A DNA stretch of 3,722 nucleotides from a virus (Duplodnaviria; Heunggongvirae; Uroviricota; Caudoviricetes): IMG/VR virus record IMGVR_UViG_2778261570_000023; one strand, 5' to 3'. Positions 1 through 3,306 of this stretch are shown piece by piece. Position numbers and translations under genes: made by a program. Every line of letters starts with the position of its first letter. The stretch's first letter is position 1. The notes under the pieces were generated by a model. The model was not told the origin of the DNA and searched no databases. It saw only the letters and a program-made list of their open reading frames with translations.

Positions 1-1242
1 ATGGCACGAAAAACCACCCCACTAACTATTACGGAGATCAAAAACGCACGACCAGGGGAAAAGGAATACACCCTGCAGGATGGTGGAGGATTATTTCTTC
101 TGGTGAAACCCTCCGGATCAAAAATCTGGCGTTTTACGTACTACCGCCCGGCAGATAAAAAACGGACTATCATCAGCCTCGGATCGCTGAATGATGTTTC
201 CCTGTCCGATGCCAGAGAACGACGGAATGAATACAGGTCACTCATAGCGAAGGGAGTTGACCCACAGGACCACGAACGCCGGAAACGTGAAGCAGAGAGT
301 CGGAAAAAGGGCAACACGTTCGAAAAAGTTGCCTCGGACTGGTACGAGATGAAAAAAGGCCAGAATCTGGCTTACAACACGATTAAGGATATCTGGCGAT
401 CCCTGGAAAAATACGTATTCCCGTACATCGGAAACACGCCAATAGATACCCTCACAGCTCGCCGCTTTGTTGAGATACTCACACCCATTAAAGCACGCGG
501 CAACCTGGAAACCCTGAAACGCGTTTTACAACGCATCAATGAAGTGATGGATTTTGCTGCCAACAGTGGGCTGATTGACATCAACACCGCCGCGAACGTC
601 CGCAAGGCATTCCCCTCACCCACCAAAAAGCACATGCCAACCATCCGACCGGAACAGCTACCGCAGCTAATGCACGATTTATCGGTCGCCAGCATAGAAC
701 GGCAAACCAGATTGCTGATTGAGTGGCAACTGCTGACCGTAGCACGCCCAGCCGAAGCAGCCGCCGCACGCTGGGAAGAAATAGATCTCGATGCCGAAAC
801 CTGGACGATTCCAGCCGGACGCATGAAGATGCGCCGTGACCACGTGATCCCCCTTTGCGGTCAGGCGATGGCTGTACTGGAAACCATGAAGCCAATCAGC
901 GCACACAGGGAACATGTTTTTCCCAGCCTTAAAAATCCAATGCTGCCAATGAGCAGCCAGACCGCTAACGCTGCATTGCGCCGGATGGGTTACGCTGGTG
1001 TGCTGGTGTCTCACGGATTACGCGCCATATTCAGTACAGCAGCGAACGAGGAAGGATTCGAGCCGGACGTAATCGAGGCCGCACTCGCACACGTGGACAC
1101 AAACGAGGTAAGGCGAGCATATAACCGAAGTAACTACCTGGAAAAGCGCGTGGTGCTTATGCGCTGGTGGGGGGAATTTGTAGAGGCCGCAGCAACCGGA
1201 GTGACCATAGCCAGCGGTAAAAGGGGTATCCGTGCCGTGTAA
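1..1242 (+). CDS. int: Site-specific tyrosine recombinase / integrase, P4 (IntA/CP4-57)-like family, 413 aa, apparently full length
   Basis: ORF spans frame 1 from an ATG at position 1 to a TAA at 1240-1242. The N-terminus (MARKT.PLT..EIK......Y.L.DG.GL.LL.K.SGSK.W.F.YYRP) recalls E. coli CP4-57 IntA and P4 Int. The C-terminal catalytic region has an R box (TVARPAE), the H-x-x-R box (HGLR, codons 1012-1023), a second His (LAHVD) and candidate catalytic Tyr in VRRAYNRSNY (Tyr codons 1120-1122 and 1135-1137). Length matches IntA (413 aa). Upstream context (int promoter, att site, tRNA) lies outside the window. Confidence 0.93.
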   Translation: MARKTTPLTITEIKNARPGEKEYTLQDGGGLFLLVKPSGSKIWRFTYYRPADKKRTIISLGSLNDVSLSDARERRNEYRSLIAKGVDPQDHERRKREAESRKKGNTFEKVASDWYEMKKGQNLAYNTIKDIWRSLEKYVFPYIGNTPIDTLTARRFVEILTPIKARGNLETLKRVLQRINEVMDFAANSGLIDINTAANVRKAFPSPTKKHMPTIRPEQLPQLMHDLSVASIERQTRLLIEWQLLTVARPAEAAAARWEEIDLDAETWTIPAGRMKMRRDHVIPLCGQAMAVLETMKPISAHREHVFPSLKNPMLPMSSQTANAALRRMGYAGVLVSHGLRAIFSTAANEEGFEPDVIEAALAHVDTNEVRRAYNRSNYLEKRVVLMRWWGEFVEAAATGVTIASGKRGIRAV

Positions 1243-1266
1243 CTGTACAAAAAAACAGTAAAACCA

Positions 1267-1295
1267 GTGCAAACCATGCCAAACCATCGTATAAT
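1267..1295 (+). promoter_or_regulatory. Putative sigma70-type promoter for the small downstream ORF
   Basis: Perfect -10 hexamer TATAAT at 1290-1295. With a 17-bp spacer the -35 candidate is only GTGCAA (1267-1272, 3/6 match to TTGACA). Sits in the int / small-ORF intergenic region, 45 bp upstream of the ATG at 1341. Confidence 0.3.
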
Positions 1296-1340
1296 TGCCA
1301 CAAATTTAACGACAAGGCCGGAGTATATGAAAATTCTATT

Positions 1341-1571
1341 ATGCAAAATACCACCGCCTACGGCGAAGGCCTGCAACTGGCCTTAATGGCAAATCGTGAA
1401 TTCTGGTCAACATACGATCCGGAAGACAAATCAACAGCCCCCACAAAACACGAGGTAGTCAGTTTTTTGCGCTCGCGTGGTGCATCGAAAAATCTGGCTG
1501 AAAGCATCGACAAGGTGCTGAGGCCCACCAGCCTTAAATGCGGTGGGCGACCTAAGAAGTGGAAACGGTAA
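1341..1571 (+). CDS. Hypothetical small basic protein, 76 aa, C-terminus GGRPKKWKR; no family recognised
   Basis: ORF from ATG 1341 to TAA 1569-1571. An intrinsic terminator begins 6 nt after the stop and a TATAAT box lies upstream. No convincing Shine-Dalgarno within 5-10 nt of the ATG (the GGAG at 1320-1323 is 17 nt away), so translation is uncertain and this could be a small RNA instead. Confidence 0.5.
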   Translation: MQNTTAYGEGLQLALMANREFWSTYDPEDKSTAPTKHEVVSFLRSRGASKNLAESIDKVLRPTSLKCGGRPKKWKR

Positions 1572-1576
1572 TCACA

Positions 1577-1606
1577 ATAGCGGCCCCTTGTGGTCGCTAT
1601 TTTTTT
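1577..1606 (+). terminator. Rho-independent terminator
   Basis: Stem 1577-1585 (ATAGCGGCC) pairs with 1592-1600 (GGTCGCTAT): 9 bp with one G-U wobble, 6-nt loop, followed directly by a T7 tract (1600-1606). Lies 6 nt past the stop of the 76-aa ORF. Confidence 0.7.
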
Positions 1607-1634
1607 GCAAAAAGAAAGCGTAATCAATGAGATA

Positions 1635-1676
1635 AAAAACAGTACCCACCGTTTAAAAAGGGTGGGTACTGTTTTT
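1635..1676. terminator. Strong bidirectional terminator-like hairpin
   Basis: Perfect inverted repeat CAGTACCCACC (1640-1650) / GGTGGGTACTG (1661-1671) with a 10-nt loop, flanked by A5 (1635-1639) and T5 (1672-1676). This gives a U-tract after the stem on either strand. Second hairpin in tandem, about 65 bp upstream of alpA. Confidence 0.6.
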
Positions 1677-1740
1677 CCCGCCCTGCCCTGTTTTACCGTA
1701 TTTATCACCGGAATACGCCGGATTAACGAGGTAAAACATA

Positions 1741-1947
1741 GTGGAAACAATCAGAAAAATACTTACCCGTCAGGAAGTAAAAAATATTCTGCGCATCAAG
1801 GCAGACAGTTCGCTACAGGACATGATCAACGCCGGAAAATTCCCGAAAGGCTTCAAAATCGGTCTGCGTCGTGTTGGCTGGTATGAAGATGAGGTGCTGG
1901 CCTGGCTGAAAGAACGCGAGGAAGAAGCGCGCGGAACGGCTGCGTAA
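1741..1947 (+). CDS. alpA: AlpA-family phage/island transcriptional regulator (excision activator-like, MerR-type HTH), 68 aa
   Basis: Translation ...ILTRQEVKNILRIKADSSLQDMINAGKFPKGFKIGLRRVGWYEDEVLAWL... fits the AlpA (Phage_AlpA) signature, including the G.FPK...G.R.VGW..EV..WL core. Start is GTG at 1741, the first start after the in-frame stop at 1732-1734, with GAGG at 1727-1730 (10-nt spacer). Stop TAA at 1945-1947. Confidence 0.82.
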   Translation: METIRKILTRQEVKNILRIKADSSLQDMINAGKFPKGFKIGLRRVGWYEDEVLAWLKEREEEARGTAA

Positions 1948-2097
1948 TGGTGTGAGGCGTAACACAATGAACATAACAAAAAGCGCCCCGTTGCCGGAGC
2001 GCCCTTGCGAACAATTAACCTGCTGCGAAAAAAATGGATCAGTGCAGGGGAATTATATCAACCGTGTGGCGAAGCGCCACAATTGCCGGATAACAGG

Positions 2098-2126
2098 CAA
2101 AGAAAAGGCCACCCGCTACGGTGGCC
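2098..2126 (-). terminator. Candidate intrinsic terminator for the minus-strand cargo operon
   Basis: GC-rich 7-bp stem GGCCACC (2107-2113) / GGTGGCC (2120-2126) with a 6-nt loop. On the minus strand it is followed by TTTTCTTTG (complement of 2098-2106). About 100 nt downstream of the stop of the 160-aa gene. No T-tract on the plus-strand side. Confidence 0.35.
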
Positions 2127-2228
2127 CTTCGACACAAGCTACACGTTATCCCCAACGCATGAGCATCACTAACAATGCCACATTTGCGGCTGGTGGGCAA
2201 AGCGTAACCGGAAAAAAATTCCGGTGGG

Positions 2229-2711
2229 CTATTTTATCTTGTGCTGTCGTAGGTAACGTCTCACACCTGGTATTTTTTCGCCAGTATCGGGGTTAATAGC
2301 TTGAATTTTTTTATCGTACAAATCTACTCTAACTATTTTCCCATGTTCGTTTTTTCCATAAACATACTCTAACTCAGGGAAATAGTGAGAGGCGTGAAGA
2401 AAATAGTTGTGTTTTAAATTTGCATATTCAAAAACTAACTTAGCATCAACACATATATATTTGTGACCGCCATGAATATCCATATAAAAATGATCTTCGT
2501 GTGTTGTTATTCGTTTTTGTTTATTAACAGGATTATCAGATGATTCCTTTCTCTCTTCATACAACTTAGCCCGTTCGGCCTCTTCTTGTGCAATTCTTCT
2601 GGATGCCTCGGCTCTAATTTTGTCGTGTGAATTTTCTGAAATAAATAATTTGGTAAGAACGTAAATGGATAAAATTACGATCGCAATGAAAATGACGAAT
2701 CCCATAATCAT
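2229..2711 (-). CDS. Membrane-anchored protein of unknown family, 160 aa: N-terminal single TM helix, charged Ala/Glu/Arg-rich linker, His/Tyr-rich C-terminal domain
   Basis: Minus-strand ORF with stop TAG at 2229-2231. Favoured start is ATG 2711-2709 (MIMGFVIFIAIVILSIYVLTKLF...), preceded by AGGAG at 2720-2716 with a 4-nt spacer; a second in-frame ATG lies at 2705-2703. The ORF track extends it to an ATG at 2759 (adds MSQPEELRLQRLHRRL), which has no SD but sits 9 nt after the upstream stop. Residues 3-22 are strongly hydrophobic. AT-rich coding sequence. Confidence 0.75.
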   Translation of the reverse strand: MIMGFVIFIAIVILSIYVLTKLFISENSHDKIRAEASRRIAQEEAERAKLYEERKESSDNPVNKQKRITTHEDHFYMDIHGGHKYICVDAKLVFEYANLKHNYFLHASHYFPELEYVYGKNEHGKIVRVDLYDKKIQAINPDTGEKIPGVRRYLRQHKIK

Positions 2712-2734
2712 TAATCTCCTATGTAATCTTTGGA

Positions 2735-2757
2735 GTCGCAACTCCTCTGGTTGCGAC
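2735..2757 (-). promoter_or_regulatory. Intergenic stem-loop between the RHH gene and the membrane-protein gene
   Basis: Perfect 8-bp inverted repeat GTCGCAAC (2735-2742) / GTTGCGAC (2750-2757) with a 7-nt loop. It lies between the RHH stop (2769-2771) and the AGGAG/ATG of the downstream gene. No U-tract follows on the minus strand, so it is not a canonical terminator. Confidence 0.3.
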
Positions 2758-2768
2758 ATTAGTGATAG

Positions 2769-2963
2769 TTATCCCTTTGGCTCAATTCCGCGCCGTAACA
2801 GTTCTTTGCGCCCTAACTCTTTAAGCCAGTTGGCAAGACTTACTCCATCGTTACTGGCTTCGTTATCAAACTGCTCCTTCAATTCAGGGACTATACGCAT
2901 ATGGAATGGTGGGGCCTTTCCTGTGCCTTTTTGTTTTTTATCGCGCTTAATAACTGTTGACAT
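2769..2963 (-). CDS. Arc/Mnt-like ribbon-helix-helix (RHH) DNA-binding protein, 64 aa, with Lys-rich N-terminal tail
   Basis: Minus-strand ORF from ATG 2963-2961 to TAA 2771-2769. Translation is MSTVIKRDKKQKGTGKAPPFHMRIVPELKEQFDNEASNDGVSLANWLKELGRKELLRRGIEPKG. The segment PPFHMRIVPELKEQFDNEASNDGVSLANWL follows the Arc/Mnt pattern (P.F..R.P.E.......A...G.S.N..L). Weak SD GGTG 6 nt upstream. The track's longer 102-aa version begins at a TTG (3077) and is not favoured. Confidence 0.7.
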   Translation of the reverse strand: MSTVIKRDKKQKGTGKAPPFHMRIVPELKEQFDNEASNDGVSLANWLKELGRKELLRRGIEPKG

Positions 2964-3022
2964 GTGTACACCTATAGCGTTATGTTTTGGTTCGTTAGGT
3001 GTACACCTTAACACGTGTACAT
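2957..3022. promoter_or_regulatory. Divergent control region with three GTGTACAC-type palindromes (putative operators) and a candidate rightward promoter
   Basis: Palindromes: GTGTACAC at 2964-2971 (overlapping the RHH start codon), a perfect 12-bp AGGTGTACACCT at 2997-3008, and a degenerate ACACGTGTACAT at 3011-3022. Centres are about 35 bp and 16 bp apart. Candidate plus-strand promoter: -35 TTGACA (2957-2962), 18-bp spacer, -10 TATGTT (2981-2986). I could not confidently place the leftward promoter. Confidence 0.4.
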
Positions 3023-3102
3023 CAAAAAACGCAACGCCCCGCAGTGGTGGCACACATGCAGGGCGTCTAACCACCAACGATAACGAGAGTATCGAGGTAG
3101 CT

Positions 3103-3306
3103 ATGAGAAATCATACCACACACCCGCAAGGGCGGGACTCGCACAACCTGAATAAATATATCTGGCGTTTTATCGCCCTGAGCACGGCACAACCGCGCGT
3201 GATTACCATTGAGGCCACCAGCGAACAGGAAGCACGCCAGCAATCCCCGGCTGGCTGCGTGATGGTATTCGCCGCCCGTATTCGTCAGGAGGTGCGCCAT
3301 GATTAA
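3103..3306 (+). CDS. Small conserved island/prophage protein, 67 aa; resembles from memory the Icd-like (host cell division inhibitor-like) small proteins annotated in P4-like elements
   Basis: ATG 3103 preceded by GAGG (3094-3097, 5-nt spacer); stop TAA 3304-3306. Translation MRNHTTHPQGRDSHNLNKYIWRFIALSTAQPRVITIEATSEQEARQQSPAGCVMVFAARIRQEVRHD. The family name is recalled, not searched, so it is low confidence; that it is a real coding gene is moderately confident. Confidence 0.6.
   Translation: MRNHTTHPQGRDSHNLNKYIWRFIALSTAQPRVITIEATSEQEARQQSPAGCVMVFAARIRQEVRHD

Follow-up and report, generated by a model that had tools for sequence, protein, structure and literature searches.

The immI region of phage P22 is governed by two small ribbon-helix-helix (RHH) repressors, Mnt and Arc, which act on overlapping divergent promoters, and in the λ prophage the rexAB genes lie behind cI as morons that are transcribed together with the maintenance repressor. 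Here we analyze a locus that shares traits with both and for whose regulators P22 immI is the closest described analogue. It occupies positions 2,229–3,022 of a 3,722-nucleotide (nt) stretch of Caudoviricetes DNA (IMG/VR record IMGVR_UViG_2778261570_000023; the whole stretch is referred to as the window) and comprises two genes, for a 64-amino acid (aa) RHH protein and a 160-aa membrane protein, whose limits and strand are those given in a preliminary description of the DNA (Table 1). That description had proposed a candidate undescribed two-gene accessory or defence system, which on the evidence presented below shrinks to an orphan cargo gene behind a common regulator. The explanation that we favor, with about an even chance of being right, is that the 160-aa gene is moron-type cargo behind an autoregulated RHH gene in the dynamic zone of a phage-inducible chromosomal island (PICI)-type satellite, most likely with a single-gene role in competition or exclusion.

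The element is a PICI-type satellite. In a near-identical genome (L001), 26-nt direct repeats 8851 bp apart bound an 8.85-kb island at tRNA-Pro, with the gene order int, alpA, the zone studied here, Icd-like, DUF4222, primase, SSB and DUF1441. This int-alpA-primase/replication order, together with the lack of lysis and tail genes and a size in the range of ~8–15 kb, is that of a PICI. The P4-like identity or analogy initially put forward was rejected, as none of psu, delta, sid and the alpha primase is annotated in the complete element. One account (PMC10111431) divides satellites into four zones, Integration, dynamic "Bro", Replication and Late, and another (PMC11364771) places immune genes at the 5′ or 3′ ends of PICIs. 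The pair sits in the known dynamic zone, and its arrangement, accessory cargo beside a small repressor-type regulator, is of a known kind; since exchangeable accessory and immune genes of satellites have already been described, the arrangement itself is not new. The locus resembles the Bro zone of Gram-negative PICIs in its position from int-alpA to the replication genes, its highly variable content, its Bro-N/AntA and Icd-like neighbours and its helper-embedded carriers. It differs in that the accessible portions of the two accounts stress Bro-network proteins and immunity RNAs and mention neither an RHH protein with paired operators nor the membrane family (PMC10111431, PMC11364771).

The position is variable among related islands, and the two genes vary INDEPENDENTLY. 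Five states of the slot occur on the same tRNA-Pro backbone: without a minus-strand gene (L074), with a 59-aa YlcI/YnfO gene only (L072), with the RHH gene only (L075), with the RHH gene and a gene for a SWIM zinc-finger protein (L073), and with the RHH and 160-aa genes (window). A variable accessory region beside int-alpA, as originally noted, is thus borne out, and the pair is not an invariant part of the backbone. Homology to the slot variants ends at 2164–2205 on the left and resumes at 3018–3026 on the right; L075 keeps the RHH gene, as a closely related allele (about 94% DNA identity), and has 2206–2773 replaced. An identical RHH protein (WP_001306492.1) precedes the SWIM gene in satellites within a prophage capsid gene, and a second RHH allele (WP_032149715.1) precedes the 160-aa gene in strain CFIAFB20180511 and the SWIM gene in L073. 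Each of the two alleles is therefore seen both with SWIM and with the membrane gene, so that all four combinations exist. In addition, block 1975–3301 recurs with ~97% identity in a second kind of satellite, sited in a prophage late region, which differs in integrase and AlpA, encodes a RepA helicase and brings capsid, decoration and TerS genes of its own.

Parts of the window are present in 1745 of 5426 complete Escherichia coli genomes, with at least 80% of the window covered in 13 only. Segment 2200–3030 has matches in 43 genomes, 15 of which carry the whole pair and one most of the 160-aa gene, the rest having only the RHH gene and control region. The membrane gene is found in 16 of the 5426 genomes, on two satellite backbones; of 87 genomes with at least 80% query coverage by the alpA region, 13 carry it. 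Its presence/absence polymorphism, its two different backbones and its deviant GC content (34.2%, with 44.6% for the RHH gene and about 47–56% for flanking genes) are those of moron cargo; set against the 1745 genomes with backbone parts, the 16 that carry it uphold the earlier suggestion of mobile cargo for this gene. The AT-richness once attributed to the module as a whole is essentially that of the membrane gene, given the higher GC content of the RHH gene. Slot states, allele combinations and block exchange together argue that the 160-aa gene is exchangeable cargo and that the RHH protein is not its dedicated partner. The cargo is like λ rexAB in being a gene of foreign composition behind a quiescent-state regulator, dispensable for the element and present only in some copies; unlike rexAB, it has a satellite carrier and encodes a single bitopic protein unrelated to RexA/RexB. 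The SWIM alternative, a 117–118-aa zinc-finger protein behind the same RHH gene (L002:3617–3973, L073:2733–3086), is equally uncharacterized and has only a weak PADLOC match (PDC-S62, E = 1e-4).

Six further contexts of the membrane gene were recovered. Five are in satellites, where the relatives' gene always lies between alpA/int and a divergent replication operon, the latter composed of small genes plus DUF4222 and either a primase or a helicase gene. The membrane gene directly follows a 64-aa-type RHH gene in Erwinia and an unrelated 92–119-aa YlcI/YnfO-type RHH gene in L004, L076/L077, L079 and L080. The Serratia context (L078) is a prophage, in which the gene lies near Bro-N and holin genes and an RHH neighbour is absent. 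In Erwinia endophytica (L011:224–1107), an RHH gene, a frameshifted membrane gene and a gene for an IS5-like (insertion sequence, IS) transposase make up a decaying copy of the pair.

These contexts bear on whether the two genes form a dedicated abortive-infection (Abi)- or toxin-antitoxin (TA)-like system, in which the membrane protein would be a toxic effector and the RHH protein its specific repressor or antitoxin, released on infection. Adjacency, shared orientation and a gap of 57 nt would fit such a system, as would the placement of the membrane gene after an RHH gene in E. coli, Erwinia, Salmonella and metagenome contexts and the name "HicB family antitoxin" that NCBI gives to RHH relatives. 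It is disfavored by the occurrence of the RHH gene alone (L075) or with SWIM or other genes, by the existence of every allele-by-cargo combination, by the two unrelated RHH families that precede the cargo and by the Serratia homologue without an RHH neighbour. Moreover, the 64-aa protein has no domain beyond its DNA-binding fold with which to neutralize a partner, its HicB match lies below the Pfam cut-off and HicA is absent, and the presumed effector consists of one transmembrane (TM) helix and a folded soluble domain, lacking features of a pore-former. Because the two genes assort independently and the RHH protein is of minimal size, we consider a TA/Abi-like pair quite improbable.

The RHH protein matches PHROG 228 ("Arc-like repressor", E = 2.4e-5) over its strand-helix-helix segment (residues 10–62), which, together with the operator covariation described below, confirms the RHH character first assigned to it. 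Matches to Pfam HicB and NCBIfam TraJ are sub-threshold; the former scores 16.4 bits with a cut-off of 21 and covers residues 20–48, the RHH part only. Many HicB antitoxins do have a C-terminal RHH, but the 64-aa protein comprises the RHH part alone, without the N-terminal HicB domain, the adjacent gene has no HicA match, and the gene downstream varies or is absent among relatives. With the HicB match below cut-off, a HicAB TA identity was rejected. The RHH protein had no match among the PADLOC-DB 2.0 defence models. RHH relatives fall into 26 clusters across Enterobacterales, with 67 loci among one-per-species genomes. In a recent survey (PMC13612085), genes of this sort figure as accessory genes alone, under "HicB toxin-antitoxin" or "YlcI/YnfO", and literature searches on these protein accessions and on ribbon-helix-helix in PICIs found no description; to our knowledge, the RHH protein and its operator system have not previously been described for these satellites.

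The region upstream of the RHH gene carries GTGTACAC at 2964–2971 and 2999–3006 and GTGTACAT at 3015–3022. These three palindromes fall within 59 bp, and at least four matches were reached in just 3 of 200 whole-window shuffles; the palindromes noted at the outset, with the RHH gene, form a real control unit. We aligned the upstream regions of about 47–50 RHH loci from many genera on the start codon. A 12-bp palindrome of the form AGGT-NNNN-ACCT (O1) lies at -8, just 5′ of the ATG, in about 45 loci, nearly all those aligned, and a second copy (O2) lies ~35 bp upstream of O1, at -43 in 29 of 47 loci. The operator centres vary among lineages (GTGTACAC, GTACGTAC, GTGGCCAC, GTGACCAC, GGGGCCCC and others). 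O2 differs from the reverse complement of O1 by a mean of 2.2 mismatches within a locus, versus 4.6 between loci of different operator class. Furthermore, across ~45 loci the bases at the operator centre and the residues of the PxFxxRI β strand vary together: PPFHMRI is found with GTGTACAC, PTFQIRI with GTACGTAC, PQFRMRI with GTGACCAC, PQFKMRI with GTGGCCAC and PHFKMRI with GGGGCCCC. This covariation is strong comparative evidence, drawn from aligned sequences, that the RHH proteins bind their putative O1/O2 sites.

About ten operator classes, each with two AGGT-NNNN-ACCT copies ~35 bp apart, track the PxFxxRI strand in this way, so that a recognition code becomes visible by comparison (window 2962–3034 and the RHH upstream regions in L002, L003, L005–L066, L075, L164 and L165). 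As the strand residues track the operator centre, these RHH-operator pairs provide a ready comparative data set for protein-DNA recognition.

A motif, TTG-(18 nt)-TGnTA(A/G)(G/T)GT, is conserved in position across the aligned loci and lies over O2. It would fit an extended -10 promoter whose -10 element (3010–3005 in the window) falls within O2, and the layout suggests that the RHH gene is negatively autoregulated. Because O1 lies in the spacer of a rightward TTGACA-18-TATGTT site, the RHH protein may repress the Icd-like/replication operon as well. Repression of this rightward operon is conjecture; promoter-like sites in the region are no more numerous than in shuffles, and the rightward site is without statistical support. 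The control region, 139 nt between the RHH and Icd-like genes, resembles P22 immI in that a small RHH gene diverges from an operon, palindromic operators overlap promoter elements and autoregulation is likely, and the facing operon resembles the P1 immI operon in that its first gene is Icd-like. Unlike at P22 immI, no antirepressor is seen under RHH control here; likeness to Mnt/Arc is limited to the PHROG Arc-like profile, and the predicted sites differ in their 35-bp spacing, in the placement of one of them on the ribosome-binding site and in their operator sequence.

The second gene is annotated as hypothetical only and its start inconsistently, the Prokaryotic Genome Annotation Pipeline (PGAP) giving alternative starts for products of 176 aa (2759) or 158 aa (2705); as homologues start at the hydrophobic segment, the short forms are favored. 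Each of the 18 family members has a single TM segment, at its N terminus, in line with the single TM helix originally predicted. In all 18, lysine and arginine are lacking before the TM segment and number two to six in the 15 residues that follow, a pattern that, by the positive-inside rule, points to an N-out anchor with the rest of the protein in the cytoplasm. The anchor (about residues 1–21) is followed by a variable, charged helical linker and by a C-terminal domain of ~85 aa with two near-invariant motifs, HA(T/S)HYFP and NPxTGE(R/K)IPG(I/V)(K/R)RYLRQ. This domain was modelled, from 15 sequences, as an SH3-like small β-barrel without a close structural relative (predicted local distance difference test [pLDDT] score, 91.6). 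A 267-aa member from a metagenome contig (P0036) has two tandem C-terminal barrel domains behind a single membrane anchor, which argues that the barrel is a self-contained module.

The family is small. An exhaustive HMMER search of 1.84 billion representatives returned nine relatives, and a profile search of 5.8 billion proteins returned 17 clusters (30–60% identity); where members have a named source, it is E. coli, Salmonella or Serratia, with the frameshifted copy in Erwinia. There was no convincing match in Pfam, NCBIfam, PHROGs or PADLOC, nothing consistent in Pfam and PHROGs for all eight members of the family alignment, no match in PDB sequence searches with the single protein or with the profile, none by tblastn in 50,697 phage records, and no paper retrieved by protein accession. 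As suspected from the start, the protein belongs to no described family; it represents a new, uncharacterized one. Its description as His-rich fits this copy (6.2% histidine), but not the family, the relatives having 1.8–5.6%; a metal site formed by the histidines or an HxxH motif was rejected, as the histidines are not conserved across the family. A family of ~17 clusters among 5.8 billion proteins, confined to enterobacterial satellites and with a confidently predicted fold, is of interest in its own right.

We find it scarcely credible that the 160-aa open reading frame (ORF) is non-functional, either a chance product of AT-rich DNA or a decaying remnant. Its AT-richness, the hypothetical-only annotation, the inconsistent start and the frameshifted Erwinia copy beside an IS element would be expected on that account. 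However, homologues at 30–60% identity keep the architecture and the two invariant motifs, a tandem-domain variant exists, the fold is predicted confidently from 15 sequences, and the gene has a good Shine-Dalgarno (SD) sequence.

Two further roles can be weighed against this distribution and architecture. The membrane protein might serve the satellite's own cycle, as a replication or packaging tether, in helper interference or in lysis timing, without protecting against other phages. The restriction of the family almost entirely to satellites, often ones embedded in late genes of helper prophages, and the lack of homologues in the 50,697 phage records speak for such a role, which we nevertheless regard as distinctly unlikely: most copies of the backbone lack the gene (13 of 87 carry it), it is transcribed opposite to the alpA/replication operons, with a quiescent-state regulator, and it has passed between backbones whose replication and packaging modules differ. 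An N-out anchor with a charged linker and a cytoplasmic binding domain is also the architecture of membrane-recruiting adaptor proteins, and the gene adjoins genes for Icd-like cell-division inhibitors; both would suit a host-adaptive membrane factor (in cell division, envelope or stress) hitch-hiking on satellites. The very narrow, satellite-bound distribution and the lack of similarity to any host family run counter to this idea, and make it, in our judgement, slightly more doubtful again than a role in the satellite cycle.

Moron-type cargo with a role in competition or exclusion remains our favored explanation, and could work as follows. The region is the "dynamic" or Bro zone of a PICI-type satellite, where regulatory and accessory genes lie. 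RHH dimers are predicted to bind the two 12-bp palindromes, with O2 over the -10/start site and O1 over the ribosome-binding site, which would keep leftward transcription low and steady during quiescence and may shut the divergent Icd-like/replication operon as well. The AT-rich 160-aa gene, which begins 57 nt beyond the RHH gene, would be a moron acquired on its own; its expression, low and autoregulated, would probably depend on the RHH transcript while the satellite is integrated. A consensus scan called no promoter for the cargo gene; since its place is behind the regulator, with alpA and the replication genes on the other strand and no promoter of its own called, it is read as an accessory gene expressed from the RHH promoter. 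Its product would be held in the inner membrane by the N-terminal anchor, presenting the SH3-like barrel on a charged stalk at the cytoplasmic face, where, by binding a component of phage or host, it would impede a rival phage at an early or membrane-linked step. A lead by analogy comes from the superinfection-exclusion proteins of temperate phages that span the membrane once: they too are small membrane-anchored products of quiescent mobile elements, but the membrane protein resembles no phage protein in sequence or fold, and its globular domain is predicted to be cytoplasmic. Indirect support comes from RHH relatives elsewhere, which precede defence-like genes (see below), and from the published placement of immune genes at the 5′ end of PICIs (PMC11364771). 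To an anti-phage role in the sense of defence we would give, by analogy, roughly one chance in three; if the protein does block phages, a compact membrane-based mechanism would be added to the immune repertoire of satellites.

Several observations weigh against the explanation that we favor. No function can be assigned to the membrane protein by homology from family, structure or defence libraries. In PADLOC-DB 2.0, it matched only CARF5, at chance level (E = 0.032, 11.9 bits), so that PADLOC gave no meaningful match for either protein to back the defence system proposed in the preliminary description. The same simple consensus scan that called no cargo promoter also failed to call that of the RHH gene; co-transcription of regulator and cargo is something that we infer, and in L004 and L076 an AT-rich spacer of 130–150 nt leaves room for a promoter of the cargo gene's own. 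Almost all contexts recovered have an RHH gene ahead of the membrane gene, which may therefore have a functional link to RHH-type regulators. Finally, the defence-like genes behind RHH relatives belong to chromosomal islets and one P4-like element and none to PICIs, and what occupies the alpA-RHH interval of PICI-type relatives is mostly Bro-N/AntA, DUF6387 and IS genes rather than recognized defence systems. On these last grounds, the notion of the slot as a proven PICI defence hotspot was rejected. The defence hotspot of P4-like satellites lies between psu and int (PMC9122126); the slot described here resembles it as a satellite position with rapidly exchanged cargo (anti-phage systems being among the P4-like cargo), but is on the other side of int, after alpA, and contains no known defence system in the copies examined.

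These RHH relatives have 57–60% identity to the RHH protein. Those in chromosomal islets (L026, L039, L054, L056 and L066, around 5300–8200) precede genes for SLATT-type 2TM effectors, a cll and RES pair, a PIN_8 protein or a pentapeptide/ion-channel protein and adjoin a conserved divergent gene for a 169–176-aa protein of unknown family, not seen in L039; in L057 (6197–8188), an AriA-like ATPase gene lies between the RHH gene and a P4-type primase gene. The RHH cassette may be a portable promoter/regulator unit for defence-like genes.

The YlcI/YnfO protein, which takes up this slot in most E. coli copies, looks like an alternative allele of the zone's regulator. In L072 it is RHH-like (…TTVRIPHEVM…STAGFLVTAAKGEIKRR…) and has upstream inverted repeats of its own (GGTGTATTTCACC / GGTGAAATACAC). 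It occurs in a short (59 aa) and a long (92–119 aa) form (L072:2941–3120, L004:7575–7853, L077:5334–5618, L079:2596–2940, L080:317–676). The YlcI/YnfO-type segment matches 1061 of the 5426 E. coli genomes, a prevalence that marks RHH-type regulators as a standing feature of the zone, present as alternative alleles as in the immunity regions of temperate phages. The YlcI/YnfO-type RHH gene is present in 168 IMG/VR contigs, the membrane family in only two, both of the E. coli type; behind that RHH gene lie, variably, other membrane proteins, Bro-N genes or nothing.

In the literature, control of Gram-negative PICIs is ascribed to the activator AlpA, and a repressor is not clearly established (PMC6092414). 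Yet in a large share of E. coli satellites a gene for a seemingly autoregulated RHH protein faces the replication operon, which makes that protein a candidate PICI repressor. In its most far-reaching form, our proposal is that the cargo encodes a new single-gene anti-phage or exclusion factor at the cytoplasmic membrane face, under an RHH switch, and that the RHH protein and its YlcI/YnfO counterpart are the long-sought repressor-like regulators of Gram-negative PICIs; acting through operators whose specificity has diversified into some ten classes, they would control how the cargo is expressed and hold the replication operon off. Taken as a whole, this proposal is unlikely.

Many of these satellites sit inside prophage late genes, namely the major capsid gene (L002/L003), the GpA terminase gene (L004), the tail tube gene (L079) and tail genes (L076), and others adjoin a late gene with a ClpP-protease domain (L080) or lie in the head-tail region (L164–L166). 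Insertion into late genes matches the published "helper-embedded PICI" configuration (PMC10111431).

Table 1. Positions of genes, putative control elements and hairpins in the window
Feature	Position	Strand	Remarks
Integrase (tyrosine)	1–1242	+	Pfam match; integration zone (1..1947)
76-aa ORF	1341–1571	+	Integration zone
AlpA-family regulator	1741–1947	+	Pfam match; integration zone
Incomplete Icd-like fragment, 234 nt	1969–2202	+	Directly after alpA; PGAP pseudogene in L001; left edge of exchangeable block
Two hairpins, CCGGAAUUUUUUUCCGG and GCCGCAAAUGUGGC	2177..2225	-	Just 3′ of cargo stop (2207–2225 and 2177–2190); weak terminator candidates
Membrane (cargo) gene, 160 aa	2229–2711	-	AGGAG 4 nt 5′ of ATG
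RHH-cargo intergenic hairpin, GTCGCAAC/GTTGCGAC	2735..2757	-	Without U-tail
RHH gene (RHH1), 64 aa	2769–2963	-	Ribbon-helix-helix regulator
Promoter-like site TTGACA-18-TATGTT	2957..2986	+	Toward Icd-like operon; candidate only; O1 in spacer; 10/12 matches
Putative operator O1, AGGTGTACACAT on gene strand	2962..2973		Overlaps Shine-Dalgarno sequence and start codon of RHH gene
Putative operator O2, AGGTGTACACCT	2997..3008		Perfect 12-bp palindrome; 35 bp from O1; overlaps -10/start site of candidate RHH promoter
Candidate RHH promoter	3005..3034	-	-35 TTGCGT (3034–3029), 18-nt spacer, extended -10 TGtTAAGGT (3013–3005)
Icd-like gene	3103..3306	+	NCBIfam NF033153 (E = 1.4e-19), PHROG 6196; right edge of exchangeable block

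The Icd-like gene heads the divergent operon of overlapping small genes, DUF4222 and primase. In the cargo-free relative L074 (2468–3268), a single 266-aa "Icd-like" ORF begins immediately 3′ of alpA and extends to the Icd domain; in the window, an N-terminal Icd-like fragment and a separately initiated 67-aa Icd-like gene flank the insert of regulator and cargo.

The intergenic hairpin between the RHH and cargo genes exists as reported, but its folding is no better than that of shuffles (z = -1.26) and it has no U-tail, for which reasons an attenuator or terminator was rejected. Of the terminator proposed downstream of the cargo gene, the minus-strand hairpins are present, but only as weak candidates (z = -2.65); the first of them also scores as a plus-strand terminator for the alpA transcript. 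An Rfam scan of the zone did not find a P4/P1-type immunity RNA (C4/isrK). Its sole match was a sub-threshold one to STnc240 at 1597–1678, between the 76-aa ORF and alpA (27.5 bits, with a gathering score of 55), where the DNA has a strong inverted repeat and then a run of T, probably no more than an intrinsic terminator. A hairpin-containing stretch in the gap between the RHH and Icd-like genes (3023–3073, ACGCCCCGCA...TGCAGGGCGT), for which Rfam gave no family match, is 81% identical to L004:7397–7449, in a satellite otherwise unrelated to the window.

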